Source: Candidatus Poribacteria bacterium (GTDB taxonomy: Bacteria > Poribacteria > WGA-4E > WGA-3G). Taken from it: DNA of 64,000 bases. Position numbers and translations under genes: made by a program. This document shows, piece after piece, positions 5,704 to 59,129 of the stretch (positions are counted from its first letter, which is position 1; each line of letters begins with the position of its first letter). The stretch covers positions 4,768,001 through 4,832,000 of the forward strand of contig OZ242029.1 of assembly GCA_965205015.1 (NCBI GenBank). Direction: 5' to 3'. Under the pieces are notes generated by a model. It did not search any database. It was not told the origin of the DNA and saw nothing but the letters and a program-made list of their open reading frames with translations.

Positions 5704-5857
5704 AGATCACAAATCGACCCTCTCTATCACGCCCATATTTTTCCACGCCATGAAGTGTGAATGTGTGCGCCTCCTGTTTTTGTTTTTTTTTGACACGTAA
5801 AAGAAATCCGTGATATAATTCCAGCATAGTTTATGCTTCGCGAAGAGGTCAACTCGG

Positions 5858-6601
5858 ATGAACCTATTTTTTAGAATCTTCTCTACAGTGATAGTCGCCT
5901 TACTCACGGCCTATATGATTGGCTGTGAGAGTTTCAACGAAGCGGAAGAACTCCCCGTCGTAGCATTCCTCAGCGCGACGCCACCAGAGAGTGAGGTTCC
6001 AGCAAATGGAACCATCACGCTTAACTTTGACAACGCGCTTGAAGATATAACAGTCCAAGCCAGTATCGGAAAAGTGGGGAAAACCATTATCTCCGGCAAA
6101 ACCGTTACGATCAACGGACCCTTCACACAGGGTGAACTCGCTTTTACCATCACTTGGGCAGATGGTGCGCAAACGCTCAATTATACCGTCACCGCTCCCG
6201 ATCCGAGCATCTCTACAGACACCGAAGACCCCATTAAACCACCAGAGCCGAAGCCGCAACTGACGAAGTCGCCTTTTAACGTCTCTGACAAAAACTTCAC
6301 AACACAGGTCATGGCGTCTGAATTGCCCGTCGTGGTCTATTTCTGGGCAGACTGGTGTCCGCCCTGCAAATGGATGGCACCCATTATCAAGGAGGTCGCC
6401 GCCGAAAACCGGGACACCTTCCTGATCGCGAAGTTAGACGTTGATAGAAATCAGCGGACCACAGAAAAATATCGGATTGAAGCGATTCCGACTTTCATCG
6501 TATTCAAAGATGGAAAGAAGATCGGACGGTTCGTAGGGGGAATGCCGAAAGCCCCGCTTCTCCAGCACATTCGTCAAGTGCTAAACGCTCAGGGAAATTA
6601 A
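5858..6601 (+). CDS. Lipoprotein with Ig-like domain and C-terminal thioredoxin (WCPPC)
   Basis: Lipobox MIGC; FWADWCPPCKWM and IPT cis-Pro motif. Confidence 0.9.
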   Translation: MNLFFRIFSTVIVALLTAYMIGCESFNEAEELPVVAFLSATPPESEVPANGTITLNFDNALEDITVQASIGKVGKTIISGKTVTINGPFTQGELAFTITWADGAQTLNYTVTAPDPSISTDTEDPIKPPEPKPQLTKSPFNVSDKNFTTQVMASELPVVVYFWADWCPPCKWMAPIIKEVAAENRDTFLIAKLDVDRNQRTTEKYRIEAIPTFIVFKDGKKIGRFVGGMPKAPLLQHIRQVLNAQGN

Positions 6602-6612
6602 GGAACTCAAGG

Positions 6613-7653
6613 ATGCCTAACCAAACTGTCAAATCGATGACGGGTCGTGAACGGGTGCTCGCTGCGCTCCGCAACGAACTCACTGACCGCACGCCTGTCT
6701 GTAATCCGACTTCCGTTGCTACGGTCGAACTGATGGATCTCGTCGACGCCCCCTTCCCACAGGCAAATCGAGAACCCGACCTCATGGCACGACTCGCTGC
6801 CACAGGATATACCGAACTCGGGTTCGATACGATCATGCCCGTTTTCACAATTATCCAAGAATCCAGCGCACTCGGTTGCAAAATTCAGTGGGAACAGAAG
6901 GACAACTGGCCCACCGTCAGAATGCGAGAACCGATCTGGGAAGACGTTGATGATATCGTTGTCCCGGACGACTTCTTAACGCATCCAGACACCCAATGCG
7001 TCCTTGAAGCGATTAAAATCCTGAAGAAAGAATACGGTGATGACGTCGCTATCATCGGGAAAACGATGGGACCCTGGTCGCTCGGCTACCACTGTTTTGG
7101 GGTTGAACCCTTCCTGTTGCTCTCACTTGATGATCCCGGCAAAACGAAACTCGCCCTTGATCGGATGAAGGAAGCCACTGTGCAATTCGGGGTCGCGCAA
7201 ATCGAGGCGGGTGCCGACGCACTGACGCTCCCCGACCACGCGACAGGTGATCTGGTCAGCGGTGAATACTACCAACGCTACCTTCGGGACCTCCACATCG
7301 AATTCGTTGAACGTATCCCTATCCCCTTAATCCTGCATATCTGTGGTCGCACTGTTGACAGGATGGAATACATCTCACAAACCGGTATGTCCGCCTTTCA
7401 CTTCGATTCCAAAAACGAACCGCAGGAATCGATGGATATCGTGAAAGAACGTATCGCCCTTGTTGGCAACATTAACAATCCCGAAACACTGTTTGCGAAA
7501 GGACCGGAAGACGTTAAAGCGGAGGTCATAAAAAACCTTGACGCGGGAGTCCCACTCATTGGACCCGAGTGCGCCATCCCCCTTCAGACAACCATCGAAA
7601 ACCTCCAAGCGATTCCAGAAGCCGTCCAAGAATGGCACCACGCACACCTATAA
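6613..7653 (+). CDS. MtaA/CmuA-family methylcobamide methyltransferase (URO-D fold)
   Basis: ILHICG Zn motif, GPECAIP, ALVGNINN. Confidence 0.85.
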   Translation: MPNQTVKSMTGRERVLAALRNELTDRTPVCNPTSVATVELMDLVDAPFPQANREPDLMARLAATGYTELGFDTIMPVFTIIQESSALGCKIQWEQKDNWPTVRMREPIWEDVDDIVVPDDFLTHPDTQCVLEAIKILKKEYGDDVAIIGKTMGPWSLGYHCFGVEPFLLLSLDDPGKTKLALDRMKEATVQFGVAQIEAGADALTLPDHATGDLVSGEYYQRYLRDLHIEFVERIPIPLILHICGRTVDRMEYISQTGMSAFHFDSKNEPQESMDIVKERIALVGNINNPETLFAKGPEDVKAEVIKNLDAGVPLIGPECAIPLQTTIENLQAIPEAVQEWHHAHL

Positions 7654-7672: not shown

Positions 7673-8293
7673 ATGAAAAAAAATACGGTTTTACTGCTAA
7701 CGACCTGTTTAATCCTGACCAATTTTTTAACGATAGGCTACACACAAGCACCGAACCTTGAACACCTACAAGCCTCCGATGTCAATGCCGATGGCGTCGT
7801 AAACATCCTCGATCTGACGCTTGTCGCCAAAAACATCGGTACGACACCCACCGCAGATCAATCCCTGAACCCGGATGTCAATGCGGATGGAACGGTCAAT
7901 CCCCTCGATTTGACGCTCGTCGTGCGTTATTTTGGTAAGAGATCCGGTATCCCGTTTGAAGTCACGGATACAACTTTTGACGATATTGTCTTGGGTTCTG
8001 AACTGCCGATTGTGGTAGAATTTAAAGACGATAACTGACGCTTCTGCATAATGATGCGACCGGTGGTCGCAGCAGTCGCCTTAGAATATCGCGAGACGTT
8101 CAGTTTCGTCAAGTTGGATGTACCTACCCAACCCGAGAAAACATCTGAATATCGCATTCGTGGAACGCCGACTTATATCGTATTTAAGGATGGAGAGATT
8201 GCCCAAGGCTTCGCCGGCGCCATGCCTAAAGCTGCACTGGTGCAACGTATCCTTGGAAGTTTAGAGATTGAAGTAACTGAGGAGAAAAAATGA
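7673..8293 (+). CDS. Secreted dockerin-thioredoxin selenoprotein (Sec at TGA 8036-8038, URFC)
   Basis: ORFs 7673-8038 and 8051-8293 are in one frame; read-through gives VVEFKDDN-U-RFC-IMMRP, aligning with WADWCPPCKWMAP of 5858-6601. Confidence 0.85.
8055..8071 (+). promoter_or_regulatory. SECIS-like hairpin
   Basis: TGCGACC-GGT-GGTCGCA perfect 7-bp stem; G-starting loop begins 24 nt after the UGA. Confidence 0.7.
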
Positions 8294-9984
8294 GAAAAAT
8301 CACCTTTTTATTTCTAACGACCTGTTTAATCCTCACGAATTTAACCGTAGGCTATACACAAGACGCGGATCTCGATACTTTAAGAGCCTCCGATGTCAAC
8401 GCTGACGGCGTGATAAACATCCTCGATTTGACGCTCGTCGCCGCAAGCATCGGCACGACACCCGCCGCAGATCAGCCCCTGAACCCAGATGTCAACGGGG
8501 ACGGTACCGTCAATATCCTCGACTTGACACGCGTCGCGAGTCACTTGGGTAAAACTGTTCCGCCGCCTGTCGCGTTCGTTGATGCGAATCCAGCAATCGG
8601 CAGACAGATCCCTGCGAATGCTACCATCATTGTAATTTTCGACATGTCGCCAGATAACGTTACAGTCAATGCGGGTGTCGCGACAACTGTTGATAAAACG
8701 GTAACAATCACAGGTCCCTTCCCTCCGGGTCCCTTTGATTTGACAATCGCTTGGACGGGCGGAAGCCAAACGCTCACCTACACTGTCGATATCCCAGATA
8801 TCGTGGCTCCCGAAGTTACCGGTGGCACCATCAGCGATGGCGATAAGGACCTTGACGCCGAAACGGTTAACACCAACGGACGGATCGAAGTTGAATTCAG
8901 CGAAGCGGTGAGTGGCAACATCGCACTGCAAACCGCAGCAGGTGAGGATGCGGGTTGGATCGGCAAAGTTGAAGGCAAAAAAGGGACGCTTGAATTGGTC
9001 AAAGGCAGAGAGATAGGCAACGAAACGACCTATGTTATAGCGGGACAGGTCAGCGACGCTGTAGGCAATTCAACCGATATTCGCATTACCTTTACGCTCC
9101 GTCCACCCGCGGCATTCGTTAGCGCACACCCAGCATCCCCATCCCAAATCGCTGTCGACGATACCATTACCGTGACTTTTGACAACCCTCCAGAAGACGT
9201 TAGGACGAGCACAGGGGATGCCACAACCACTGGGAAAACAGTGAAAATCACGGGTCCCTTCAAACCGGGTCCTCTCGTCTTGACGATCGTTTGGGCGGAT
9301 GGTATCCAAACCCTCAACTATACCGCCCATGTCCCGGATACCGAGGCACCCAAAATTACCAGTAGCAGCGTCAATAACGGGGATAAGGACGTTGACCCCG
9401 AAGCCCTTAACCTCCCTGGGCGGATCGAAGTTACCTTCAACGAAACAGTAACCGGCAACATCGCACTGCAAACCGCAGCGGGTGCTGATGCGGGGTGGCT
9501 CGGAAAAATCGCAGGAAAGAAAGGGACGCTTGAACTCGTCAGAGGCAAAGAACTCGGCAACGAGATAACCTATGTTATTGCCGGAAAAGTTAGTGATGCT
9601 GCGGGCAATTCAACCGACCTCAACATTCGGTTTACCACTTCCAGTAAAACCTCCGGGATCCCATTTGAAGTCACCGATGCGACGTTTAATAGCCTTGTGC
9701 TTAACTCAGAAGTCCCCGTCTTGCTTGAGTATGTAAAGGACGGCTGACCGTCCTGTCAACGGATGGCGCCAGTTGTCGCCCAAATTGCTTCAGAGAACCG
9801 GAACACATTTGCCGTCGCAAAACTGAATATTAAGAATGCCCGACAGACGCTCCGAAAATATCCGATTCGACAAACGCCGACCTATATAGTGTTCCAAGAC
9901 GGAAAACGGGTCGGAAGTTTCGCAGGTGTCATACCAAAAGCCCAGCTACTTCAGAAGATTCTTAGCGTCATAGACGTTGAATAG
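8290..9984 (+). CDS. Secreted dockerin/Ig-repeat/thioredoxin selenoprotein (Sec at TGA 9745-9747, UPSC)
   Basis: ORFs 8290-9747 and 9763-9984 are in frame; read-through gives LLEYVKDG-U-PSC-QRMAP; two dockerin EF-loops and duplicated Ig-like modules. Confidence 0.85.
9765..9780 (+). promoter_or_regulatory. SECIS-like hairpin
   Basis: GGCGCC-AGTT-GTCGCC (one mismatch); loop begins 24 nt after the UGA, same register as 8055-8071. Confidence 0.55.
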
Positions 9985-10075: not shown

Positions 10076-11992
10076 TCACAAACGACTCCGATGATAAAAC
10101 CACCACTCCAACAGGAGCAGCAGGAGTGCCGCGAGCGCAAACCAACGCCATATCTCCTGCACCATCGGTTGCAATCCGCCTTCTACATCCGTTGAAGGCG
10201 CTGCAACCGTCGCCGTTGGAGAATGCGACAGTGCCGATTCCGTAGCGTTCAGCAGATTGACCGTGAATCGCTCAAGCTGCACATCATCCGCAAAAAGGGT
10301 GTAGACCCCAATCTGATCCGTCTCGGTAAACATTGAATTCGCCAATCCGACCGTTGTTCCATCAGGCTTCTGCACGTGAAGTGAGCGTCCCTCACGTGTC
10401 AACCCGACGCGCACCTGTTCTCCGGTTCGGAAGGCGTGTCGGGTTCCACTTCCTTGAGACGCAATCGGCTGCAGCGGGGCAGTTCCTCCCTCAAACCACG
10501 CTAAACACTGATAGATGAATTGCGGTCCATCGGGGACAGTCAGCGCAAAGGCAGAAATTTCCGGGTTAAACGCATCGAACTCAAAAACAAGGAGCCGGGT
10601 GTCGGATCTGCTACCGATCCATATCAATACCCCCTTCTCCGTTTCAACAAGCGACTGTCCCCAGAGTGGCAATACTCGGTGCATAGACTCGCTTACCTGT
10701 AATCCCTGCAGCGACACACTCTCCATGAGCGGGTGATTCCCATCCTCTTTGAGAACCCGCACAGGTGTCCTCTCGGTTTCAACAATCGGAGCCCCTTCTC
10801 CAATGAAGGGCAGATTGTCACCGGGCGAGATGAAGATCAGACCCGTTGCAGAGGGTACCTCAGACGCTTCATATAGTATGGAGGGTCCAAACGCCTCGCG
10901 TCCGGCGAGCGTACCCCCATCGAAAATTGCGACATCCGCATCACCAATGCCGTGATAATCCGCTGGATCAACCACATAGAGTTTCACGTGATCTCCATAG
11001 GATTTCAAAAGGTCGGGTAGTAACGATTTTCGATTGTCACTCACCAGCAAAATCCGTAGTGAGGGGACAGCGGATAGGAGCGCCGAAGCCCTGTCATCAA
11101 GCGGAAAATCGTCATCTACACCCAGGTGGACGCTGAGAACCTTCCCCTCTAAACCGTTCGGATCCCCTGAAAACAGGACTGATTTGGTCGCATTCGGAGG
11201 GATAGACACCGTTCTATCATCCAGCGGAACCGCTTCCACCGCCAATTGAACGTCGAATTCTTTGGGGCTCTCCGTAAAATTCTGAATACCCATGAGGACT
11301 TCGTAGCGATCCGCTAATATCTCAACGCTGAACCGAACGATACCGACATTCTCCGCATTCCCACCCACTCCGATTTTCTGCACCGGCAGCGATATATCCG
11401 GTAGGTTTTCAAACGTCCCACTGATAAAGACGATCTTATCTTGGGGTGAATCCGCATAGCGGGTAGCGGCATCAAACACAGGACGGAGATGTCGCGGGGC
11501 ATGCGTCTGCGCAATATCCTCTATCGCTTGATGCAGTTTCGAGGTATCCGTTGTAAAAGCTTGTTGGATATGCGTATCAGCGGAATTCGTCACCATGAGC
11601 ATCATCCCACCGCTCGCGGCAACCTCTTTAATATATTTCTGTGCTTCCTGTTTTGCGAGTGCGAGTCGAGGGGATCCCATCTCTGTTGACGACATCCTCG
11701 CGGAATTATCAACGATGAGAATCGCTTTGCCGGGCATGAATCCGGGTCTATGCAGCGCAGGGCGCGCAACGCTGAGTGTAAGAAGCAACAAAAACAGCAC
11801 CTGGAGCAGGGGGAGGAGTAGGTTCCGGAGTCGTTGGAAAGGGACATTTGCTCTCCGATCTTCGTCAGTGGAGCGCCAAAATAGAATGCTGGGGACGAGG
11901 TGGGTGTGGCGGCGTAATTTCAGAAAATGAAGTGCCACCACGATTGGAATAACACCCAGTAGATAAAACGCGGCAGGGTTTAGGAATTGCAT
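10076..11992 (-). CDS. BatA N-terminal / vWA domain membrane protein
   Basis: MQFLNP...LHFLK BatA motif, degenerate MIDAS DNSARM, C-terminal LLLLEWW helix. Confidence 0.8.
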   Translation of the reverse strand: MQFLNPAAFYLLGVIPIVVALHFLKLRRHTHLVPSILFWRSTDEDRRANVPFQRLRNLLLPLLQVLFLLLLTLSVARPALHRPGFMPGKAILIVDNSARMSSTEMGSPRLALAKQEAQKYIKEVAASGGMMLMVTNSADTHIQQAFTTDTSKLHQAIEDIAQTHAPRHLRPVFDAATRYADSPQDKIVFISGTFENLPDISLPVQKIGVGGNAENVGIVRFSVEILADRYEVLMGIQNFTESPKEFDVQLAVEAVPLDDRTVSIPPNATKSVLFSGDPNGLEGKVLSVHLGVDDDFPLDDRASALLSAVPSLRILLVSDNRKSLLPDLLKSYGDHVKLYVVDPADYHGIGDADVAIFDGGTLAGREAFGPSILYEASEVPSATGLIFISPGDNLPFIGEGAPIVETERTPVRVLKEDGNHPLMESVSLQGLQVSESMHRVLPLWGQSLVETEKGVLIWIGSRSDTRLLVFEFDAFNPEISAFALTVPDGPQFIYQCLAWFEGGTAPLQPIASQGSGTRHAFRTGEQVRVGLTREGRSLHVQKPDGTTVGLANSMFTETDQIGVYTLFADDVQLERFTVNLLNATESALSHSPTATVAAPSTDVEGGLQPMVQEIWRWFALAALLLLLLEWWFYHRSRL

Positions 11993-25759: not shown

Positions 25760-26653
25760 GTGAATATGGAAAGGGAAGAGATCATCCATAGATTTCAGAA
25801 CTTGAATGTATGGAAAAGAGGACATAAAGTAGCACCCCACAAGCCTCTTTTAGTCTTGTACGCAATTGATAAATTGCGACGTGGAGAAAACCAACTTATA
25901 CCATACACAGAAGTAAAGGAGAAACTTTCAGAATTACTGATCAAATTTGGAACAAGCAAGTCGGAACCCCGTCCTCACTATCCGTTTTGGCGCCTACGCC
26001 AAGATAATGTTTGGAAAGTAACCGACGATCATCTTATTAAGGAAACCGACAGCGGAGATGCCCACGTCACTGACCTGAAGCTCCACGGTGTCTCTGGAGG
26101 ATTTCACAAAGCAATTGCTCATCACCTACAGAACGATTTCAGCCTTACTTTAGAAATAAGCGAAAGCATGCTTGATCATTTTCGTTATTCAAAACACAAG
26201 GATATTTCACAGGCTGTTGGGATTGAGGACCTGTCTCATGTGCCCAAACGACAAAGACGAGAGTGGAACTTTCCCAAAAACGTACGGAAAGCCTATGAAT
26301 ATAAATGTGCAGTTTGTGGTTTTGATGTAAAATTGCACCACCGACATGTTGCGCTAGAAGCCGCACATATTCAGCCCCTTAAAAAAGGTGGACCTGATAT
26401 AGCAGAAAATGGCTTGGCTCTTTGTTCACTACACCATGAACTATTTGATCGTGGAGTTTTCACGTTGTCGGAGCAATTAAAAGTACTCGTGTCTAAGTAC
26501 GCAAATGGGTCAACGGGCTTTGATAAATGGTTGATGCGTTTTCATGGAAAGAAAATCAATCTTCCGCAGAGTCGAATGTATTACCCTCGCATCAGCTTTA
26601 TAGACTGGCATTTCAGAGAAGTATTCAAAGACCCTTATCGCGAAAAAACTTGA
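25760..26653 (+). CDS. SBD-HNH phosphorothioate-dependent restriction endonuclease-like protein
   Basis: APHKPLLVL and HYPFWRL sulfur-binding-domain motifs; CAVC..EAAHI..NGLALCSLHH.LFD HNH domain. Confidence 0.75.
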   Translation: MNMEREEIIHRFQNLNVWKRGHKVAPHKPLLVLYAIDKLRRGENQLIPYTEVKEKLSELLIKFGTSKSEPRPHYPFWRLRQDNVWKVTDDHLIKETDSGDAHVTDLKLHGVSGGFHKAIAHHLQNDFSLTLEISESMLDHFRYSKHKDISQAVGIEDLSHVPKRQRREWNFPKNVRKAYEYKCAVCGFDVKLHHRHVALEAAHIQPLKKGGPDIAENGLALCSLHHELFDRGVFTLSEQLKVLVSKYANGSTGFDKWLMRFHGKKINLPQSRMYYPRISFIDWHFREVFKDPYREKT

Positions 26654-26940
26654 CATTTAACACAAATTTGTGCTAAAATCTAAATATGGAAAATCGGGAT
26701 ACAAATACCACAGCTAAAACACTACACCTGCTTAACCGCAATCGCTGCTCATGGCGATTCTTGATGCCCTTAAAGTCTGCTTGTATACAAGATTTTAACA
26801 AGTCGACTCGCCCCCCCCCCCCACTTTACAAACGATAAGCAATATACTTCATAAGACATTGACAGCATCTGCCAATGTTCTGTTTCCGCGCCCGCGTGTC
26901 CTCTCTCGCGATGATCCTCTATGCGGGCTGTTTTTGTTGT
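26650..26940 (+). promoter_or_regulatory. Poly-C leader element copy 1 (uORF 26686-26838, C12 at 26811-26822, hairpins, U-tract)
   Basis: TTGACA...TGCTAAAAT promoter; uORF MENRDTNTT...FNKSTRPPPPLYKR*; GCCCGC/GCGGGC stem then TGTTTTTGTTG. Confidence 0.75.
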
Positions 26941-27021
26941 CCTATCTTCTACCGTTACTCTCAATTTCTCTCTCATGTTGCTGCTTGCTCCAGAGGTTGC
27001 TACATTTTGGAGGAACGAAAT

Positions 27022-27957
27022 TTGAGTAACGCCTACACAACCGCACCTCAGACGATTCATCCATCTTTTTCGGGACACCAAACGTTTCCCTTCCGGTATA
27101 CCTGGCTCAAAAAAGGCGTTGATGCCGTGACAGAAAATCCGACCGTCTTTTCATCGGAGAACGCCTCTGTCAGTTTAGGTGTTGGAAAAAACATGGTCAG
27201 TTCTATTCGGCATTGGTGTCGAGTATCAAGACTCATTGAGACAATAAAGCCAGTACCGTATCAGCGCGGGCAATTTGCCCCCACTGCACTCGGAAAAGCC
27301 ATTTTTGACGATAAAGAAGGATTTGACCCATATCTTGATGATCCAGCCACGCTGTGGCTAATTCATTGGCAAATTGCAACAAATACCGATCCGGCAACCG
27401 CGTGGTATTGGGCATTTAATGTTTCAAGGGGCAACCAATTCACACCCCAAATATTCGCACGAGAACTGTCCAAATGGGCACAGGAAAAGAAACGATCCAT
27501 GCGGTCGGTTTCTGATAATACACTCCGACGAGATGTCAACTGCTTTATTCGAACCTACTGTCAGTCCCGTCACACCGATGTCGTTGTCGAGGAGACCCTT
27601 GATTGCCCTCTCGTTGAACTCAATTTAATTGCCGAATTGCCAGACGGTAATGGATATGAATTCCAGCGAGGTGATAAAAAAACACTACCAATCGAAACCG
27701 TTGCGTGGGCACTGGATACGTTTTGGCAGCTTTACTTCCCACGGCAAGAAGCACTCTCGTTCTCAGAATTGATGTATGCGCCATCAAGTCCGGGACGGGT
27801 TTTCAGGTTAGACGAAGACACAATGACAGTATATCTTGAGAACCTCGCACAACTCACGGAAGGTGCGTTGCAATATGATGAAACAGCAGGTCTAAAGCAG
27901 GTCTATCGACATAGAGATTTAAACCAGATGGAACTTTTAAAGGAATATTATGGGTAA
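27022..27957 (+). CDS. sspB: DUF4007 protein (SspB-like)
   Basis: FSGHQTFPFRYTWLKKG, LGVGKNMVSSIRHW, DPYL..TLWLIHW; TTG start after GGAGG. Confidence 0.8.
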   Translation: MSNAYTTAPQTIHPSFSGHQTFPFRYTWLKKGVDAVTENPTVFSSENASVSLGVGKNMVSSIRHWCRVSRLIETIKPVPYQRGQFAPTALGKAIFDDKEGFDPYLDDPATLWLIHWQIATNTDPATAWYWAFNVSRGNQFTPQIFARELSKWAQEKKRSMRSVSDNTLRRDVNCFIRTYCQSRHTDVVVEETLDCPLVELNLIAELPDGNGYEFQRGDKKTLPIETVAWALDTFWQLYFPRQEALSFSELMYAPSSPGRVFRLDEDTMTVYLENLAQLTEGALQYDETAGLKQVYRHRDLNQMELLKEYYG

Positions 27958-30900
27958 CGTCCGTTTGTCAGAACTTTTTCACATTACAGAACGTTTTCAG
28001 CGTTCGGTCCATCTGGCGCGCGATTTTTATACAGAAAACGCTTTAGATGGCTACGTCGTGACTGCCAAAGCACGGGAAACCCTCACTCGGCTCATCACAG
28101 CACAAGAAAACGGCGCGACATCAAGAGCCTGGTCTCTTACCGGACCCTACGGTTCAGGGAAATCCGCATTTGCGCTGTTCGCTGCAAAACTACTCGGAAA
28201 TTCTGAAGCACCGACAACCCGTCAGGCACTCGATCTGCTGGAACATGAAGATCCCTCGCTATATGAACGATTTATCAGCATAAACGGCAATGGAAATGGG
28301 ACCCCATCTGGATTCTGTCCGGTGCTTATCTCTGGCGAACGCGCACCAATCATACTTGCCCTTCTACGCGGTTTAGAACACGGACTCAAGACTTTCGGAA
28401 TTTCGTCCTCTAGTGCGCTTCAACGGAAGATCAGAAATCTGTTGAAAATCGCCGCAAACGGCACACCGCCACATGCATCTGAAATCACTTCGCTTTTCGA
28501 GTCGGCGGCGCGCACCGTTCGGAAAAACGGCGGCACTGGTCTATTGTTAGTAATTGATGAACTCGGCAAGTTCCTTGAGTACACCGCGCAATCTCCAGCA
28601 AAAGGCGATGTGTTTGTCCTACAAACTCTCGCCGAATTTGCAACACGTAGCGATCAGACCCCGCTATTTTTGCTGACGATTCTGCATCAGGCTTTTGAAC
28701 AATACGCAAACAAGATAGCAAAATCGCAACGTGAAGAGTGGACAAAGGTCCAAGGACGGTTTGAAGACATCGCCTTTGTAGAACCTGCAGAACAGACCAT
28801 TCGGTTGATCGCTGCCGCTATCCAGAATACATTAACTGACAAAACAGAAAACCTATCTATAGTACCCAAACTTTATCCAACTGAATTAAATCTCACACCC
28901 CACCAATTTGAGGACACTGAATTCGATCAACTCCTCCAAAACTGCTTACCACTCCACCCGACCATAGCACTTATTATCGGTCCGATCTTCAGACGATTCG
29001 CCCAGAATGAGCGTTCCCTTTTCGCCTTCCTTAACGCAAGTGAACCTTATGGACTCCAAGACTTTCTGTCAAACCAGCATTATAATGGCAGCGTGCTACC
29101 GATATTCTCGATCGCCGACCTATATGACTATCTCAATACCACCATAGGGAATAGATTAGCCGACTCAAGCGTAGGTAATAGGTGGGTGGAGATTGAAATG
29201 GCTATTAACGGAATCACTGATCCATCACCGACAACCATTAAACTCATTAAGACGATAGGGTTACTCGGTATTACCGGAGAAGTAAGCATTAATCTGAAAG
29301 CCTCAAAGCACGTTCTCCGTTATGCCTTAGATGACTGCACTGAAGGATTCACAGAGAAATTTGAAACCGCACTGGATACGCTAACAAGACGCAAGATCGT
29401 TATCCACCGTCCCCGAAACGACACCTATGCCCTTTGGGAAGGCAGTTACATTGACATTGAAGCCAAACGCCATGAGGCGGAACAACATCTTGATCCAAAC
29501 CAAAGTCTCACAACTTATCTTTCAACGCTCGCGCCCCCTCGACCTCTCATCGCCCGCCGACACCTGTTCGAGAAGGGGACACTCCGCTATTTCGCCCTTC
29601 GTTACACCGACGCTGAAAATTTCGACGCGTCGCTCAGTGAACCACTCGGCGATGCAGACGGACTCGTTCTCTATGCCCTCCCCGCAGACGAACATGAAGG
29701 TAGGCACCTCATTGAAAAAGCGAAGGCCAAAGCCGTTGTAAACCGTAAAGAGATCCTGATTGCAATCCCGCATTCCACCAGCTTTCTGCACGACGCTGTT
29801 ACCGAACTCGCCTGTTTACAGTGGATCTCGGAAAACACACCGGAACTCGACGGCGATCCAGTCGCAAGGCGAGTCCTTTCACGCCGACGGTTAGAAGCGG
29901 AACAAAATGTAACCGAGCAGTTCGCAGCCATCTTTGGTAACGACAGCGAGAATACTTGCAAATGGTTTCACAAAGGACAAAAAGTAAATATCAATTCTCA
30001 ACGCGAAAGAAATGAACATCTATCAAAAATCTGCGATGTGGTTTACCACGAAACCCCCATTATTCTGAATGAACTGATCAATCGGCGTAAAATCTCCGGC
30101 ACTGTAACAACCGCACGCAAGAGATTAATTCAAGCGATGCTCGAAAACGGCGATCAAGAACACCTCAGCATTACTGGCTATCCTCCTGAAATGAGTATCT
30201 ATCGTTCCCTCTTATGGAACACAGGGATACACCGCGAAGTTGAAGGTGTATGGGGATTCCACCCACCACATCCAGAGGATAAAAACGAAATATCGCGCAC
30301 ATGGCAAGCGATCGAGACGTTTCTTGGCAAATGCGAAGGTGAGAGACAACCTGTCGAGAAACTCTATGAAAACCTGATGGCACCACCCCTGGGCGTGCGA
30401 AACGGTCCTCTACCTATCCTCTTGTGTGCCGCGATGCACCATTACAAAACAGAAATAGCACTTTATGAAAACGGCTCCTTTATCGCAAATTGGTCAATGC
30501 CGGTCTTTGAAAGGCTCCTTAAAGCACCGCAACAATTTGAGCTGAAACGGTTTCGGATGACGGGTATCCGCTCGGATCTGTTTTCACAGTTTTCAGAGGT
30601 ATTCAATCAATCGACAGACACCCAAAAACCCGATCTGTTGACAGTCATCACACCGCTCATGCGCGCCATCGCACAACTCCCGAAGTACACTTTGGGGACA
30701 CAAGAATTGCGTGATAACGCGAAAAATCTCCGTAAAGTTGTGCTGAATGCGCGTGAACCTGACGAACTCCTCTTCAAACAATTGCCGGAGGCTTTTGGCT
30801 TTTCTGCCTTTAGCGAGGAGGCGGCAACAGATTCAAGGACTATTTCGGAATTTTTCAGGACACTCCAAGATGCATTGTCCGAGTTAGAACAGGCGTATGA

Positions 30901-31366
30901 CATCCTACTGAATTCGGTTGAACAACTGCTTGCAGAGGCGTTCAGTTTAACACCGACGGCAGAAAAACTCCGCGTAGAACTGGTCAAAAGAGCCGAACCT
31001 TTGTTAGCGGTAACAATTGAAATGGATCTTAAAGGATTTTTAATCCAAGTTTGTAGCGGCGGACACGCTTTCAGCAGTTGGCTTGAAGCCATCGCGACCT
31101 ATCTCGCCAAAAAACCGCCTCCAGCGTGGATAGAGGCAGATAAAGCCCAATTTGAGATTAATCTCTCTCAAATCGCAAGAAAGTTTCGGCACTTTGAAGC
31201 GGTATCCTATGAAAAAGGGAAGCACATAGTCGACGAACAAACCGCTGCCATAGAACACGAGATCAAAAAAGTTTTCGACAAATTCAACGTAGACAACAAC
31301 CCGGAACTCCATATCGCAATTTTAGCACGAATTTCACAAAAATGGATACAACACCTTGACGAATAG
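27950..31366 (+). CDS. sspC: Large P-loop ATPase (SspC-like)
   Basis: Walker A GPYGSGKS, Walker B VIDELGK, EWTKVQGRF, QNERSLF; lies between DUF4007 and PAPS reductase genes. Confidence 0.75.
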   Translation: MGNVRLSELFHITERFQRSVHLARDFYTENALDGYVVTAKARETLTRLITAQENGATSRAWSLTGPYGSGKSAFALFAAKLLGNSEAPTTRQALDLLEHEDPSLYERFISINGNGNGTPSGFCPVLISGERAPIILALLRGLEHGLKTFGISSSSALQRKIRNLLKIAANGTPPHASEITSLFESAARTVRKNGGTGLLLVIDELGKFLEYTAQSPAKGDVFVLQTLAEFATRSDQTPLFLLTILHQAFEQYANKIAKSQREEWTKVQGRFEDIAFVEPAEQTIRLIAAAIQNTLTDKTENLSIVPKLYPTELNLTPHQFEDTEFDQLLQNCLPLHPTIALIIGPIFRRFAQNERSLFAFLNASEPYGLQDFLSNQHYNGSVLPIFSIADLYDYLNTTIGNRLADSSVGNRWVEIEMAINGITDPSPTTIKLIKTIGLLGITGEVSINLKASKHVLRYALDDCTEGFTEKFETALDTLTRRKIVIHRPRNDTYALWEGSYIDIEAKRHEAEQHLDPNQSLTTYLSTLAPPRPLIARRHLFEKGTLRYFALRYTDAENFDASLSEPLGDADGLVLYALPADEHEGRHLIEKAKAKAVVNRKEILIAIPHSTSFLHDAVTELACLQWISENTPELDGDPVARRVLSRRRLEAEQNVTEQFAAIFGNDSENTCKWFHKGQKVNINSQRERNEHLSKICDVVYHETPIILNELINRRKISGTVTTARKRLIQAMLENGDQEHLSITGYPPEMSIYRSLLWNTGIHREVEGVWGFHPPHPEDKNEISRTWQAIETFLGKCEGERQPVEKLYENLMAPPLGVRNGPLPILLCAAMHHYKTEIALYENGSFIANWSMPVFERLLKAPQQFELKRFRMTGIRSDLFSQFSEVFNQSTDTQKPDLLTVITPLMRAIAQLPKYTLGTQELRDNAKNLRKVVLNAREPDELLFKQLPEAFGFSAFSEEAATDSRTISEFFRTLQDALSELEQAYDILLNSVEQLLAEAFSLTPTAEKLRVELVKRAEPLLAVTIEMDLKGFLIQVCSGGHAFSSWLEAIATYLAKKPPPAWIEADKAQFEINLSQIARKFRHFEAVSYEKGKHIVDEQTAAIEHEIKKVFDKFNVDNNPELHIAILARISQKWIQHLDE

Positions 31367-31378
31367 AGGGAGAAAAAC

Positions 31379-32215
31379 ATGGAACAAAAAACACGTCACC
31401 TGCTCGGTCTCTCCGGTGGTAAAGACAGTTCCGCGCTTGCCGTTTACATGCGGGACAGGGTGCCAGAGATGGAATACTTCTTCTCTGACACGGGTAAGGA
31501 ATTGCCAGAGACTTACGCGTTTCTGGATCGATTAGAGGTATTCCTCGGCAAACCGATTGCACGTCTCAACATGGAGCGGGATGCCAGCGAGAACCGCGAT
31601 TTCGATCACTGGCTGACGCTCTACGGAGGCTTGTTGCCGTCGTCTCAAGTGCGATGGTGCACTGTTAACCTTAAGATAAGACCTTTTGAGGAATACGTCG
31701 GCGAAGACAAGGCGTATAATTACGTCGCCATCCGTGCCGATGAAGACCGTGTCGGTTATAAACCGCTGAAAACCGCCGCCCTCCGCAACATCGAGCCGAA
31801 GTACCCGTTCAAAGAGGATGGCATCACCAAAGAGGATGTCTACCGAATTCTGGAGGAAAGCGGTCTCGGTCTACCTGATTATTACAACTGGCGGACGCGT
31901 TCGGGGTGTTATTTCTGTTTTTTCCAGCGCAAATCCGAGTGGGTGGGACTCTTAGAGCAGCATCCAGACCTCTTTGAACTCGCCAAGGCATACGAGAAAT
32001 TCAACCCAGAGACAGGCGAACGGTTCACGTGGTGTCAAGGTGAAAGCTTAGAGGAACTGTCGCAACCCGAACGGATCGCGCAAATCAAGGCAAATACTGA
32101 AAAGGCGATGGCATCCAAGAAAACGGCAAAACCGAATCGTCGTTTGATAGAGATTCTCACCGATGTTCATGACGACGAAGATGACGAAGAACCGTGTCTG
32201 ATTTGTCACAAGTGA
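31379..32215 (+). CDS. sspD: PAPS-reductase family protein (SspD-like)
   Basis: SGGKDSS, RWCT, RSGCYFCFFQ, C-terminal CLICH. Confidence 0.8.
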   Translation: MEQKTRHLLGLSGGKDSSALAVYMRDRVPEMEYFFSDTGKELPETYAFLDRLEVFLGKPIARLNMERDASENRDFDHWLTLYGGLLPSSQVRWCTVNLKIRPFEEYVGEDKAYNYVAIRADEDRVGYKPLKTAALRNIEPKYPFKEDGITKEDVYRILEESGLGLPDYYNWRTRSGCYFCFFQRKSEWVGLLEQHPDLFELAKAYEKFNPETGERFTWCQGESLEELSQPERIAQIKANTEKAMASKKTAKPNRRLIEILTDVHDDEDDEEPCLICHK

Positions 32216-32263
32216 TAATTCTATAATATCAAAACTATTTATACAATAAGAGGTGTCTAACCT

Positions 32264-33538
32264 ATGAGAACAATTTCACTAGACAACGGTTTAGACAACG
32301 GTTGGCCCATTGATAGGGTCATCAGAAGGAGACCACGGATAAATCCACAACCCCAATATCAACGAACACCAGTTTGGAACGACACAAAAAAACAATTACT
32401 TATTGACTCAATACTTCGGGGATATGACTTACCTAAATTCTATCTGCGCTCATCTACTAACGGATATGAACACGAGGTTGTCGATGGTCAGCAAAGACTT
32501 CTCGCAATTTGGGATTTTCGGGACGATCAGTATGCGTTAGGAAATACATCAAAAGATATACCTAATTTTGGAGATTTATCAGGCAGAAAATTCTCAGAAT
32601 TACCCAGCGAAGCACAAGATCAATTTGGAGAATTTAAACTTAATTTGGTTGTGATAGAGGAAGCATCAGACTTAGAAATACGGCAGCTTTTCTTAAGATT
32701 GCAGGAAGGAGTTAGCCTGAATCCTCCAGAAAAACGGAACGCTATGTCTGGTAATATGCGTGATTTTGTAGCAGACTTGGGGGAAAACCACCGAATTTTT
32801 CGCACAGAATTAATTCGTCTTCCTGATACAAGATTTCAGTGGCATGATTTAGTGGCAATAGTAACATGCTTAGAAATAGCTGGAGGACCAACAGATGTTA
32901 AAGCTCCTAGTCTGAAAAAGATGTACGAGGATGAGCAGGAGTTTAATAACAATGGAACCATTTCCCAAAAAGTAAAACGATACTTGAATTATATGGCAAG
33001 AGTTTTTGAAGCCCCTGAAACCCCGATTCCCGAAACAGATATTAAGTGGGGCTTCGTAGACTTGTACCTACTGATTTCAAAAATGGATGCCTCCTATGCT
33101 ATCAGTCAGCGAGAACAAGACTTTAAAAATTTTTACATTACTTTTGAAGGCGAGAGACGAGAAAATATGAGTGATTATGGTTCACTACGTGCTGGTCAAG
33201 ATCTTTGGAATAGAGACTTATATAATTATATTGAGGCATTCATTCGTTCAGGGGGTACAAAAAAGAATATCAACACGAGACATAAAGTATATAAAAGACG
33301 ATTTCTTAGAGATTTTCCAGACTTAGTGTCGAAAGACCCTCAACGTAGATTCACTAACGACCAACGGATTTTCATTTGGCGCCGAGCCAATGGTAAGTGT
33401 CAAATATGCGATGCAGAGATTAATTTGAATCAAATGCATGCCGATCATATCATTTGTCATAACGAAGGTGGAAGAACAACCCTTGAAAACGGACGAGCAC
33501 TTTGTATACCATGTAACACTAGTAGAGGTGTTACATAA
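32264..33538 (+). CDS. DUF262 + HNH protein (SspE/GmrS-like)
   Basis: YQR..W, VVDGQQRL, F.RLQ.G..L; C-terminal CQIC..HADH..GG.T...N...LC..CN. Confidence 0.8.
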   Translation: MRTISLDNGLDNGWPIDRVIRRRPRINPQPQYQRTPVWNDTKKQLLIDSILRGYDLPKFYLRSSTNGYEHEVVDGQQRLLAIWDFRDDQYALGNTSKDIPNFGDLSGRKFSELPSEAQDQFGEFKLNLVVIEEASDLEIRQLFLRLQEGVSLNPPEKRNAMSGNMRDFVADLGENHRIFRTELIRLPDTRFQWHDLVAIVTCLEIAGGPTDVKAPSLKKMYEDEQEFNNNGTISQKVKRYLNYMARVFEAPETPIPETDIKWGFVDLYLLISKMDASYAISQREQDFKNFYITFEGERRENMSDYGSLRAGQDLWNRDLYNYIEAFIRSGGTKKNINTRHKVYKRRFLRDFPDLVSKDPQRRFTNDQRIFIWRRANGKCQICDAEINLNQMHADHIICHNEGGRTTLENGRALCIPCNTSRGVT

Positions 33539-50279: not shown

Positions 50280-51011
50280 ATGAAAACACCTCACACACGC
50301 GAAAAACTCACGCAAGACTTCACCAATCTTGGTATTGCCCAAGCGGATACACTCTTTATCCATTCATCTTTCAAAAGTCTGGGACCCGTTGAAGATGGTG
50401 CTGGCACGGTGATCTCCGCGTTAGAGGCAGCAGTCGGGGCGGAAGGCTTGATTCTGATGCCGACTTTTAGTCTGTTACCGAGTCGGGAAGCGCGCGTCGC
50501 GGCGTGGGATGTCAACAAGACACCCTCTACAGTGGGCTGGTTGACAGAGTTTTTTCGGCAGATGCCCGACACCTATCGTTCCGACCACTATTCGCACGCC
50601 ATTGCTGCTCGCGGGAGAGACGCCAAGGCGTTCGTGTCCGATCACCGGCGACGTGAAGGCTATCAATCTCCGTGGGATCATTACCCGTGGGGCAAGACTT
50701 ACGGCACGCATTCACCGATGTTCCGTGCCTACACGATGAACGCCAAACTCCTCATGCTCGGTGTCGATTACCAGACCTCGACCTATATCCACCTCGTTGA
50801 GGTTATCCATTGGAACAAACGTCTCGCCGACGATCCACAGGCGGAATATATCCGTCTGAAACGTCCAGAACTCGGTGAATACTGGGAGCGTCTCGGTCAG
50901 TTGAAACAAGGGAAGGTGGGAGATTCCGTATGCCGGTTGTTCCACATCGAAACGTATGTGGACTCCCTTTTGGCAGAGGTAGCGCGCAATCCTGAACCGT
51001 ATGTCGTATGA
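50280..51011 (+). CDS. AAC(3)/YokD family N-acetyltransferase
   Basis: LFIHSSFKSLG, LMPTFS, G.LTEFFR, RSDH, TYIHLVE. Confidence 0.85.
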   Translation: MKTPHTREKLTQDFTNLGIAQADTLFIHSSFKSLGPVEDGAGTVISALEAAVGAEGLILMPTFSLLPSREARVAAWDVNKTPSTVGWLTEFFRQMPDTYRSDHYSHAIAARGRDAKAFVSDHRRREGYQSPWDHYPWGKTYGTHSPMFRAYTMNAKLLMLGVDYQTSTYIHLVEVIHWNKRLADDPQAEYIRLKRPELGEYWERLGQLKQGKVGDSVCRLFHIETYVDSLLAEVARNPEPYVV

Positions 51012-56672: not shown

Positions 56673-57629
56673 ATGACCCCAACAGAATTCATTGCAAAAA
56701 AACAGAAAACCTGGGACGAACTTGAGGCACTCCTCAACCGTTCACGCGGTGCGAGTGCGAGTCACCTCAATCGGCTCGGGTATCTATACCGTCGCGTTAC
56801 GTCCGATTTAGCGGTCGCCCGACGCGATTTCCCACAAGATTCGTGCGTCCCATATCTCAACGCCCTCGCCTCACGCGCGCACGCCGCAGTCTACCAGACA
56901 TCCCCTTTTAAGCGGGGTTCATTGCGTCAGTTCCTTCTCTCCGGTTTCCCGAAAGTCTTTCGAGAGAATCTTATCTTCATCGGCGCCGCGTTCCTGATGT
57001 TCACCCTCTCATTTGCGGCGGCGTACTGGATCGCTTTAAGCACACCTGAACGTGCGGAACAACTCGTCCCCGAACGCTTCGTGTCTCACATCAAAGAGTT
57101 AGAAGACGGCACCTGGAACGATACTTCAGCAGAAAACCGAAACCTATTTGCCTCTTTCGTGATGACGAACAACATTCGGGTCGCATTTTTCGCCTTCGCT
57201 GGGGGCATCCTATTCATGGTCGGCACCGCCTACGTTTTAGTTATCAACGGCATTATCATCGGTGCAGTCGCCGGTCTGTGTCATGCCAATGGAGTTGCCC
57301 TTGCTCTCTGGTCGTTTGTATCGCCACACGGCTATATTGAACTCACAACGATTTTCATTGATGGCGGTGCTGGATTGAAATTAGGATACGCACTCATCGC
57401 CCCATCCTTTTTTACGCGGAAACGGACGTTGACAGATGCCGCGAGAACCGCGATTCAACTGCTCGGTGGGAGCGTTGCCTTGCTCGTCGTTGCCGGGATT
57501 ATTGAAGGTTTTGTGTCGCCTTCCGGTCTCCTCCCCTCCGTCAAAATCGGTTTCGGTGCTTTGACAGGAATCCTACTGTTCACCTACCTCTTTGCAACGA
57601 AAACCCTCAAATCTGAGACCTCGCCTTAA
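56673..57629 (+). CDS. Stage II sporulation protein M (DUF95) family membrane protein
   Basis: NNIRVAF, PHGYIEL, AGIIEGFVSP. Confidence 0.88.
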   Translation: MTPTEFIAKKQKTWDELEALLNRSRGASASHLNRLGYLYRRVTSDLAVARRDFPQDSCVPYLNALASRAHAAVYQTSPFKRGSLRQFLLSGFPKVFRENLIFIGAAFLMFTLSFAAAYWIALSTPERAEQLVPERFVSHIKELEDGTWNDTSAENRNLFASFVMTNNIRVAFFAFAGGILFMVGTAYVLVINGIIIGAVAGLCHANGVALALWSFVSPHGYIELTTIFIDGGAGLKLGYALIAPSFFTRKRTLTDAARTAIQLLGGSVALLVVAGIIEGFVSPSGLLPSVKIGFGALTGILLFTYLFATKTLKSETSP

Positions 57630-58962
57630 GTTCTAAATACTTATTTACGACCGCCATTGTCAACTGATGCGCGGGAACATCAATCGTGATGACGCCTCGA
57701 CGCCGCAGGATCTCTAATGTCGCATGTTTCTCCTGCAACAACCGCTCAGCGATTGCTTTCTGGTAAACCGACTTGGAATCCGTAGACTTCTGTTCCGCCA
57801 ATTCAACGATCCCGGAGTCCGTCAAGGTCACACAAGCAACGAGGTGATGTTTAGAGAGTTGCGACACATAGGCGGCGATCCCCTCAGCGGAATCGTTATC
57901 CAAGATGTCCGTAAATAGGAGGATGAGCGCACGTTTGCGCTGCTTTGCGGCGAGATACTTGAATGCCGCCTCAAAATCGGGTTCAACCGAGTGAACAGGG
58001 AGCGCATAGATCGTTTCCAGCATCGTGAGAAACTGCTTTTTGCCGGGTTTCGGCGCAAGGTATTGATGAACGGTATCCGCAAAAGCGATCAACCCGACTT
58101 TATCCCCCTTGAATGTCGAGACATACGCCGTCATCAAAGTCGCATTAATGGCATAATCCAATTTAAGCATCGCCTTTTGCGACAGAACCGCTGTCGCGGG
58201 GAGGGCAGTCGCTTCCAAAAGGATCGGCGACGCCATGAGCCTCCCCGTGTCCAACATAATGACGACATCCTGGCTCCGCTCTGTCTCAAATTCCCGAACA
58301 ATCGGTTTCCGTTGCCGCGCAGTGGCGTTCCAATCGATACGGCGGAAATCGTCATCGGGAAGATATTCACGGAGTCGCTCCATCTCCGTGCCTTCCCCGA
58401 ACCGTCGTGAATTCTTAAGCCCGATCTGATGGAGCATCCCACGTTTCACCAGGAGCTCATATTGTCGGACGGCTTGTAGGTTCGGATACACTTTTATTTC
58501 CATCGACGCTGGCACCCGTCGTTGCCGGATGACAAGCCCTAAGATCCCCTGACCCCGCAGATGTATATCTACGAACCGATAAATTCCGCGTCGCAACGGC
58601 GTGAGTCGATACGATATATCTGTTTGGTCCATCGGCTCAACAGAACAGTCGTGGACGATCGCATCGAACAGAAACTCGTCGGGGAAATCGTCTTTGAGAT
58701 GTGCCTTGAGTGGGTAGCGCGAACGATTGATGACCTTCAGTGTCACGACGTTCTCCACGCCCAACGAAAACTTGGAATTCATCTCGCGATGAACCTCAAC
58801 GCCTTTAAAGAGTGGATTGGTAAGGTAATCCACGGCACTGACGACAAAAAGCACCACCAAATATGCGCCACCGACAAATAACAGGTTCGGTGAAACGCCG
58901 CTCAGCACAACCGGAACGGCGCCTATCAGTAAGAAGAGGAGGAGACGGTTGCTTAAATGCAT
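57607..58962 (-). CDS. DUF58 / vWA-like protein
   Basis: LREYLPDDDFRRIDWNATAR, LDTGRLM. Confidence 0.9.
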   Translation of the reverse strand: MHLSNRLLLFLLIGAVPVVLSGVSPNLLFVGGAYLVVLFVVSAVDYLTNPLFKGVEVHREMNSKFSLGVENVVTLKVINRSRYPLKAHLKDDFPDEFLFDAIVHDCSVEPMDQTDISYRLTPLRRGIYRFVDIHLRGQGILGLVIRQRRVPASMEIKVYPNLQAVRQYELLVKRGMLHQIGLKNSRRFGEGTEMERLREYLPDDDFRRIDWNATARQRKPIVREFETERSQDVVIMLDTGRLMASPILLEATALPATAVLSQKAMLKLDYAINATLMTAYVSTFKGDKVGLIAFADTVHQYLAPKPGKKQFLTMLETIYALPVHSVEPDFEAAFKYLAAKQRKRALILLFTDILDNDSAEGIAAYVSQLSKHHLVACVTLTDSGIVELAEQKSTDSKSVYQKAIAERLLQEKHATLEILRRRGVITIDVPAHQLTMAVVNKYLELKARSQI

Positions 58963-59129
58963 TCTTTAATTATACCTTGCGGATAAATGATAGCATTTGT
59001 GATTTTAACGGTTTTTGTGTTCGAGTCGCCTGCGTGTTTTTGCTTGGGGTCTTTGCTTGGGTATTTCTGCGTATTTCTGCGTATTGTTGCAGGCTTGGTT
59101 TTCGCGTTTTTCATTTGCTGAAAACCATT

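Follow-up and report, generated by a model that had tools for sequence, protein, structure and literature searches.

Two adjacent genes of a sponge-associated bacterium are each interrupted by one in-frame TGA, which raises the question of whether this codon ends the protein, marks a decayed gene or is read as selenocysteine (Sec, U). The genes lie in a stretch of DNA from Candidatus Poribacteria bacterium (contig OZ242029.1, assembly GCA_965205015.1, positions 4,768,001-4,832,000), and this whole 64-kb stretch, as analysed, is called the window below. Poribacteria is a phylum with sponge symbionts. The window has a G+C content of 49%, and the nearest relatives of its proteins in protein and contig searches were Candidatus Poribacteria. 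In this study, we believe that gene 1 and gene 2 encode previously unannotated selenoproteins, most likely secreted thioredoxin-type enzymes with Sec in the active site. An earlier note on this DNA had proposed the Sec reading, and the analysis supported it for both genes: the TGA is conserved, distant homologues carry cysteine (Cys) at its place, the frame downstream is open and selected, and the hairpins behind it covary. The probability that both are intact selenoprotein genes is put at roughly 0.85. The features discussed are as follows.

7673..8293, plus strand: gene 1; signal peptide, dockerin and thioredoxin domain with proposed U122 (URFC); 206 residues
7673..7747, plus strand: predicted signal peptide of gene 1, MKKNTVLLLTTCLILTNFLTIGYTQ; from sequence features, with an inferred cleavage site
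7775..7933, plus strand: Dockerin type I module of gene 1 with two DVNADG..LD repeats; Pfam PF00404, 53.6 bits, residues 35-87
7958..8251, plus strand: thioredoxin domain of gene 1; Pfam PF00085, 66.0 bits, residues 96-193
8036..8038, plus strand: in-frame TGA of gene 1, proposed Sec122, first position of UxxC
8056..8070, plus strand: hairpin of gene 1 resembling a selenocysteine insertion sequence (SECIS); stem 8056-8061 with 8065-8070, loop GGT at 8062-8064
8290..9984, plus strand: gene 2; signal peptide, dockerin, two immunoglobulin-like (Ig-like) units and thioredoxin domain with proposed U486 (UPSC); 564 residues; stop TAG
8290..8361, plus strand: predicted signal peptide of gene 2, MRKITFLFLTTCLILTNLTVGYTQ; from sequence features, with an inferred cleavage site
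8389..8547, plus strand: Dockerin type I module of gene 2; Pfam PF00404, 47.3 bits, residues 34-86
8563..9639, plus strand: two Ig-like repeat units of gene 2, each made of a unit common to the Cys paralogue and a Big_5 domain
9667..9960, plus strand: thioredoxin domain of gene 2; Pfam PF00085, 65.7 bits, residues 460-557
9745..9747, plus strand: in-frame TGA of gene 2, proposed Sec486, first position of UxxC
9765..9780, plus strand: SECIS-like hairpin of gene 2; stem strands GGCGCC and GTCGCC, mismatched at a single C.U, and loop AGTT at 9771-9774
5858..6601, plus strand: Cys paralogue (WCPPC); lipoprotein-like signal (..MIGC), one Ig-like unit, thioredoxin domain

Under translation table 11, each gene is cut exactly once, by the TGA. 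Read with TGA as U, gene 1 gives ...VVEFKDDN-U-RFC-IMMRPVV... and gene 2 gives ...LLEYVKDG-U-PSC-QRMAPVV.... The two genes overlap by ATGA, with the stop TGA of gene 1 (8291-8293) running into the ATG of gene 2. Gene 2 repeats the plan of gene 1, except that Ig-like repeats of about 360 residues separate its dockerin from its thioredoxin domain. The two proteins are 62% identical at the N-terminus and 46% identical in the thioredoxin part. Within the repeats, Pfam found Big_5 (51.1 bits) in two stretches, the best at residues 350-450, and residues 92-170 and 272-367 matched the Cys paralogue in BLASTP. When the frames of the window delimited by TAA or TAG were scanned, 20 TGA sites had at least 60 open codons on either side. 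The [U]xxC context occurred at only two of the 20, namely in genes 1 and 2, and these two, the ones for which a family match was sought, have one on both sides of the TGA.

The re-read frames bear out the description in the earlier note, which had placed both TGAs (8036 and 9745) on the first Cys position of a thioredoxin CxxC and had noticed the neighbouring paralogue at 5858 with WCPPC, where the codon is TGT at 6356. The dockerin-like repeats that it saw in both genes scored above the Pfam cut-off as Dockerin_1, and the Ig repeats that it saw in one were recovered as Big_5 in gene 2. Its expectation that gene callers would split the pair into four open reading frames (ORFs) held for the two N-terminal pieces, which the check covered and which are present in the protein collection as proteins of 121 aa (P0006) and 485 aa (P0126). 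TGA is not a general sense codon in this organism. It is the stop of 10 of the 39 window ORFs with a family match; gene 1 itself ends in TGA, as do its orthologues in loci L003 and L004, and most other orthologues end in TAA or TAG.

Related loci were collected by a genome-contig scan, which matched 601 stretches and 215 relatives; the best 80 were kept and 78 loci obtained, which together with the window amount to 1.29 Mb. The thioredoxin domain of gene 1 was searched against six-frame translations of the window and these loci, with TGA kept as a letter. The search returned 49 hits, and the 33 in the window and the Poribacteria loci were analysed; the 16 left out were in Flavobacteria, Chlorobi, an archaeon and other non-Poribacteria. 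Genes of the gene 1 type carried the TGA in 17 of 18 loci of other Poribacteria species, the exception (L017) having TGT for Cys. Those of the gene 2 type carried it in all 11 other loci, that is, in 10 orthologues and in L028, whose architecture differs somewhat from that of gene 2 in the window; with the window the count is 12/12. The earlier note had suggested looking for homologues that pair TGA with a Cys codon. Such pairing was found, with TGA in 30 genes, TGT in L017 and the window paralogue, and TGC in L064. The contrary prospect it had raised, that close orthologues would all carry Cys and the TGAs be private to this genome, does not hold in view of the 17/18 and 11/11 other loci with TGA.

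All 30 TGA frames remain open for a further 76-91 codons and stop where the Cys homologues end. Mean pairwise ratios of nonsynonymous to synonymous polymorphism (pN/pS) were calculated on both sides of the TGA. For gene 1 (153 pairs, 30 codons upstream and 70 downstream), the ratio was 0.294 before the TGA and 0.308 after it, indicating purifying selection equal on both sides. These data bear on the idea that the genes are decaying thioredoxin genes with private nonsense mutations, or products of sequencing or assembly error, for which nothing speaks beyond the in-frame stop itself. The same TGA recurs in another 28 loci from independent assemblies, and 201 additional truncated protein clusters imply it; no second stop or frameshift follows for 76-91 codons, and selection on gene 1 downstream equals that upstream. 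We regard decay or error as practically negligible.

The truncated clusters came from two protein searches. That with gene 1 gave 374 proteins at E <=0.001, and that with residues 300-564 of gene 2 gave 354 proteins at E <=1e-10; the best 120 clusters of each were used. For gene 1, 85 of these 120 ended exactly one residue before U, including the window's own 121-aa piece, and 35 were full length with CxxC (CPFC 14, CFYC 7, CGFC 5, others 9). For gene 2, 118 of the best 120 ended at that point, one ended earlier, and one (P0219) was full length with WCPFC. Truncation at the TGA thus occurred in 203 of the 240 best-listed clusters of both families, 201 of them (84 + 117) beyond the window's own. 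Those clusters that bear a name are all from Candidatus Poribacteria and are called 'hypothetical protein', 'dockerin type I domain-containing protein' or 'Ig-like domain-containing protein'. Among the matches listed, the Cys orthologues are built like gene 1 and are <=69% identical to it, and more distant homologues have Cys at the U position.

If the TGAs were true stops, the products would be dockerin-only proteins of 121 and 485 aa, with the thioredoxin remnant started from an internal ATG (8051 or 9763) or left untranslated. Gene callers give exactly these truncated products (P0006 and P0126), and an ATG does lie five codons (gene 1) or six codons (gene 2) past the TGA. However, the break would divide a single thioredoxin fold between its strand 2 and helix 2, and therefore neither part would be able to fold by itself. 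The internal ATGs have no Shine-Dalgarno-like sequence in front of them, the same Met is found in uninterrupted Cys homologues, and the residues between TGA and ATG (xxC and the next) are conserved. In addition, the TGA aligns exactly with the Cys of CxxC in the 35 + 1 full-length homologues of the best-listed clusters. True termination is hardly credible on this evidence.

Exchange between Sec and Cys was followed on a FastTree tree of the region before the active site with 137 sequences (102 Sec and 35 Cys; P0039, which has no N-terminus, was left out). At least 6 switches were needed, compared with a mean of 31.3 and a minimum of 26 in 500 label shuffles. As the tree is quick and short, 6 may be taken as a rough lower bound.

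The next question is whether the RNA behind each TGA looks like a SECIS. The earlier note had described a hairpin after each TGA with a G-containing loop starting 24 nt downstream, and this was found in both genes. In gene 1 the hairpin is GCGACC-GGT-GGTCGC, with the loop beginning at 8062, and in gene 2 it is GGCGCC-AGTT-GTCGCC, with the loop beginning at 9771. They span positions +21..+35 and +21..+36, respectively, and the alignments are gap-free from the TGA onward for both genes. Across species the loops are GGU, AGUU or GGUC, with G in position 1 or 2 in all of them. According to PMC13582414 (2026), a G in place 1 or 2 of the apical loop is the bacterial SECIS consensus.

In the gene 1 family, columns 21-26 pair with 30-35, and 89.2% of 102 cells were paired. 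Compensatory changes among distinct sequences were seen at pair 22-34 (CG 7, AU 4) and pair 23-33 (GC 9, AU 3). The covariation score was reached by 0 of 500 shuffles, and slid registers paired 17-69% of cells. In the gene 2 family, columns 21-24 and 26 pair with 31 and 33-36 around the loop AGUU, and 100% of 60 cells were paired; pair 23-34 varied (CG 9, UG 1, UA 1, AU 1), and the score was reached by 6 of 500 shuffles. RNAalifold returned the same gene 2 hairpin with a lower helix of columns 7-11 and 47-51. The P-V-V codons that form the top of the hairpin were invariant in 30/30 Sec forms vs 14/36 Cys forms. No such hairpin was present in the three Cys-form DNAs that could be read (L017, L064 and the window at 6356), and for the paralogue, where the earlier note had seen no equivalent, folding and hairpin comparison gave the same outcome. 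The data support covariation of the 3'-adjacent hairpins, which as predicted structures would fit a bacterial SECIS.

The domain carrying the TGA was assigned to thioredoxin PF00085 at 66.0 bits in gene 1 and 65.7 bits in gene 2 (cut-off 23.5). The active-site motifs are N-URFC and G-UPSC, not WCGPC. By their family scores, both proteins are placed in the thioredoxin-fold family, not among TrxA equivalogs. No NCBIfam selenoprotein model matched either protein at its cut-off. An AlphaFold2 model of gene 1 from a 21-row alignment had a mean predicted local distance difference test score (pLDDT) of 84. Residues 81-200 formed a thioredoxin fold with pLDDT 88-95 in blocks of ten, with a strand at 113-118 and U122 at the start of helix 123-138; the model also had a low-confidence N-terminal helix (2-20), the putative signal peptide, and a dockerin-sized helical module. 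The best matches of the model in the Protein Data Bank were classical thioredoxins at a template modelling (TM) score of ~0.9, and 2trx_A aligned with TM 0.93, a root-mean-square deviation of 0.9 A and 34% identity. The loops GTPTY and QTPTY, which we take to be the cis-Pro loop of the thioredoxin fold, are conserved. We consider it very likely that both are redox-active thioredoxins.

Several results weigh against the selenoprotein interpretation or parts of it. In gene 2, pN/pS was 0.381 before the TGA vs 0.605 after it; the downstream value is not taken at face value because the comparison is ungapped and includes indels, which several sequences have there. In gene 1, six of 17 distinct sequences (L008-L012, L020) fall outside the 6-bp register and instead form a shifted CUGU-GGUC-ACAG hairpin, of 6 bp in L010. 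The unpaired cells at 22-34 and 23-33 all belong to these loci, apart from one L002 cell at 22-34. RNAalifold gave only 3 consensus pairs for gene 1 because two hairpin registers are present. In gene 2, covariation is confined to one pair, and a register slid by -3 paired 98.3% of cells with zero double changes. Single-sequence folding of the 60 nt after the TGA was no better than shuffles (z -0.64 and -0.04); since this energy is not significant, support for the hairpins was taken from covariation across species. The TIGR01068 thioredoxin equivalog model scored 64.5 and 64.2 bits, below its cut-off of 96.8.

The machinery for Sec was likewise missing from the DNA searched. The window contains no tRNA gene by ARAGORN, no Rfam match at gathering thresholds and no selA/B/D-like ORF. 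In the 60 of the 78 loci scanned with ARAGORN there was no tRNA-Sec, only tRNA-Glu, tRNA-Lys and one 'tRNA-???', and SelA, SelB and SelD of E. coli K-12 had no tblastn match at E <=1e-3 in the window and the 78 loci. The missing SelA, SelB and SelD matches say little because 1.29 Mb is a small sample of each genome. Family scans of window proteins found no cohesin within the 64 kb, and no DsbD/CcdA-like gene was found there. The 'tRNA-???' (90 nt, L063 4054-4273) proved to be a GGTTCC-type short tandem repeat with only sub-threshold, miRNA-like Rfam matches and was rejected as a tRNA-Sec.

For other members of the phylum, the literature lists this machinery. In PMC5649159, SelA and SelB are stated to occur together in the majority of sponge symbiont bins. 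Its Table S4, with columns counted by hand, lists SelA/SelB/SelD as 2/1/1 in bin70, 4/1/2 in bin44 and 2/1/1 in Ca. Poribacteria WGA3G, and bin70 and bin44 are placed in Candidatus Poribacteria by its Table 2. PMC13582414 names Poribacteria among the phyla with Sec-type group 4 hydrogenases, and its supplement lists Sec proteins and two tRNA-Sec in one Poribacteria metagenome-assembled genome. As far as these two sources go, they support the view that the phylum can decode Sec.

A related possibility is that the UGA is recoded as Cys by an allo-tRNA of the tRNA-ReC (SelC*) type, working with SelB and the same hairpin, so that the product would be an ordinary CxxC thioredoxin. The present sequence data do not distinguish Sec from Cys at the codon. 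PMC13582414 reports tRNA-ReC-like genes in 13-17% of the genomes surveyed and cites work in which tRNAs of this type can recode UGA given a SECIS. However, the Poribacteria genomes in the literature list SelA and SelD, which are needed only for Sec synthesis, and no tRNA-ReC-type tRNA was found by ARAGORN in the window or the 60 loci scanned. Keeping a UGA and its hairpin in many species merely for Cys has no obvious advantage, and relatives use TGT or TGC. Recoding as Cys is very unlikely. We have little doubt that the UGA is read through as Sec, a case made by comparison.

On the Sec reading, the following steps are proposed. The UGAs at 8036 and 9745 would be recoded as selenocysteine, with SelB and Sec-tRNA(Sec) binding the stem-loop 18 nt after each UGA, whose loop (GGU or AGUU) lies at 24 nt. 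The products would be proteins of 206 and 564 residues with a Sec-type signal peptide, a type I dockerin and a classical thioredoxin fold, the second with two additional Ig-like units. They would be exported across the inner membrane, and the dockerin may hold them on a cohesin-bearing protein of the envelope or surface. There, the Sec of U-x-x-C at the N-terminus of helix 2 would be the attacking residue, presumably a stronger nucleophile than the Cys of the paralogues. The enzymes may serve in thiol-disulfide (selenenylsulfide) exchange or peroxide reduction on extracytoplasmic substrates.

How far do the sequences support export and docking? By inspection, both N-termini have a basic n-region (KK, RK) and about 15 hydrophobic residues followed by GYTQ, and this is kept in the orthologues. 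From these N-termini, export of both proteins is likely. Dockerin_1 PF00404 matched at 53.6 bits in gene 1 and 47.3 bits in gene 2 (cut-off 22.9), covering profile positions 2-56 of 57. The duplicated calcium-binding segments can be read as DVNADGVVNILD and DVNADGTVNPLD, and both repeats are intact and conserved in orthologues. Forty-two dockerin-matching ORFs were extracted from other Poribacteria loci, and 29 of them were scanned against Pfam. Cohesin was above the cut-off in 3 of the 29 (L067 7406-10636, L069 6440-10711 and L070 1624-5952), and therefore cohesins exist in the phylum. These three large proteins combine Cohesin and Dockerin_1 with a C-terminal sorting domain of the type IX secretion system (T9SS), FlgD_ig or Por_Secre_tail, and are candidate surface scaffolds or self-linking proteins. 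With the dockerin matches and these cohesins in mind, docking of the two proteins on a cohesin comes close to an even bet without quite reaching it.

The proteins may also be real selenoproteins that are soluble in the periplasm, with the dockerin acting as a calcium-binding or other interaction module without a cohesin partner, like many non-cellulosomal dockerin-like modules. The absence of a cohesin gene from the window fits this, as does the presence of Dockerin_1 on very diverse Poribacteria proteins (WD40, LRR, solute-binding and others), where it is far commoner than cohesins. However, cohesins above the Pfam cut-off do occur in the phylum, on large T9SS-sorted proteins, and both calcium-binding repeats have stayed intact and conserved. 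A soluble periplasmic form is a real possibility, somewhat under even odds. Going further, one may picture a conserved extracellular redox module of Poribacteria in which the two Sec-thioredoxins are tethered by dockerins to cohesin-bearing, T9SS-sorted scaffolds and act on host matrix or host-derived oxidants; we consider this picture rather unlikely as a whole. Dockerins appear to serve generally in Poribacteria as a tag for sorting or attachment. Dockerin_1 also stood at the end of many eukaryote-like repeat proteins (WD40, LRR) in L038-L047, L055, L059, L062, L065, L066, L072 and L074.

The gene pair sits in a conserved neighbourhood. The order is SDR, PQQ-propeller, beta-lactamase-like, unknown, MtaA/CmuA-type methyltransferase, [gene 1, gene 2], BatA on the opposite strand, LamG and UppP, and it is kept wholly or partly in L001-L012 and L020. 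The gene-2-type precedes the gene-1-type in L008, L009, L011 and L020 (e.g., L008 9572 and 10361). The Cys paralogue lies between the 'unknown' gene and MtaA only in the window; L001-L003, L005-L012 and L020 have no counterpart, and therefore it looks like a lineage-specific insertion or a duplication derived from gene 2. Its thioredoxin domain is 46% identical to that of gene 2, and the two have the Ig-like unit in common. Genes 1 and 2 differ from this paralogue and from the Cys orthologues (P0003-P0005, L017, P0219) in having TGA instead of TGT or TGC; the signal of the paralogue (5858-6601) is of the lipoprotein type, and it has no dockerin. A sigma-70-like promoter with a 12/12 match (5790-5819; TTGACA, 18 nt, TATAAT, with TG) lies just 5' of the paralogue. 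Because the gaps from the promoter and paralogue to gene 2 are short, the arrangement suggests that the paralogue, MtaA, gene 1 and gene 2 may form one transcript.

The methyltransferase directly 5' of the gene pair (6613-7653) belongs to the MtaA/CmuA family with the URO-D fold. Its protein is 92-96% identical across 13 loci, vs 55-94% for its neighbours, and no functional link between it and the selenoproteins was found. The BatA gene converges on gene 2, an arrangement conserved in related loci. BatA/VWA, DUF58 and MoxR-like AAA ATPase genes, which are pieces of an aerotolerance-type Bat operon, occur at 10076-11992 and 57607-60083. Farther away, 25760-33538 is a defence-island-like run of genes that we assume to resemble an Ssp/Dnd-type phosphorothioation system. 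Its genes encode a phosphorothioated-DNA-binding restriction endonuclease (NF045808, above the cut-off at 305 bits), a DUF4007 protein, a P-loop protein of 1138 aa weakly similar to BrxC, a PAPS-reductase-like protein and a GmrSD/HNH endonuclease. The ORF at 50280-51011 matched the aminoglycoside 3-N-acetyltransferase family at 102.9 bits, far short of the curated cut-off of 270; it belongs to the family and is not called a resistance gene. Other selenoprotein genes were sought in the fetched DNA, and the 44 UxxC or CxxU candidates with long open flanks look on inspection like noise from off-frame or antisense reading, one example being the frame opposite the conserved MtaA gene.

The pair can be compared with several known systems. 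Known Sec-thioredoxins are generally small, cytoplasmic, single-domain proteins. Those of Treponema denticola, Geobacter, Carboxydothermus and others share with genes 1 and 2 a thioredoxin fold, Sec at the redox motif, Cys in most homologues and a UGA followed by a SECIS. Unlike them, the proteins described here have the thioredoxin domain after a signal peptide and a dockerin, and in gene 2 also after Ig-like repeats, and the xx residues of the motif are RF, PS, PF or IY, not GP. In cellulosomes, the cargo is a glycoside hydrolase. The enzymes of Clostridium/Acetivibrio thermocellum with type I dockerins likewise have a signal peptide and a duplicated calcium-binding dockerin; here, in contrast, a redox protein is carried, with the dockerin on its N-terminal side, and the host is a Poribacterium.

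According to PMC1794560, thioredoxin (Trx) is among the bacterial selenoprotein families, and UxxC, CxxU or TxxU motifs were found in 15/17 families with detected Cys-to-Sec conversions. The DsbA-like, DsbG-like and thiol:disulfide interchange selenoproteins of that paper are extracytoplasmic oxidoreductase families with Sec forms, as proposed here. Unlike DsbA and DsbG, however, the present proteins match classical thioredoxins best, lack the helical insert domain and are fused to a dockerin. A further parallel is the SAO-system (bioRxiv 10.1101/2022.07.06.499078), in which SaoB, SaoC and SaoT of Clostridioides difficile and other anaerobes carry signal or lipoprotein signals and are placed outside the cytoplasm. 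As in genes 1 and 2, database entries for these proteins are usually truncated at the TGA, and SaoT is thioredoxin-like with UXXC forms. The families and neighbourhood are different, and SaoT as described in that preprint has ~85 residues, is related to MJ0307, carries no dockerin and has a proposed metal-binding role.

A full-text literature search of a limited set of papers returned no dockerin-bearing selenoprotein. In the same limited literature, the selenoproteins of Poribacteria were hydrogenase only, and nothing related to dockerins or cohesins of Poribacteria appeared by title. The recoding mechanism is ordinary because thioredoxin-fold selenoproteins are well known, and the recoding signature is the known one; the new points are the fusion to a dockerin, the arrangement as a tandem pair, the phylum and an almost complete mis-annotation. 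Owing to truncation and uninformative names, surveys of sponge symbionts that go by function overlook both families. Sec and Cys forms occur together in the gene 1 family, separated by at least 6 switches on the tree, and the family is therefore a good natural series for asking when Sec pays off.

The signal peptide and dockerin fusion, found in a tandem pair across many Poribacteria, would put selenium chemistry outside the cytoplasm, possibly on a surface scaffold. If true, this would be the first case of selenoenzymes being assembled on a scaffold of the cohesin-dockerin kind, and they would act where no NADPH-linked reductase is at hand. Overall, the pair offers a handle on selenium demand and extracellular redox biology in the sponge symbiosis.

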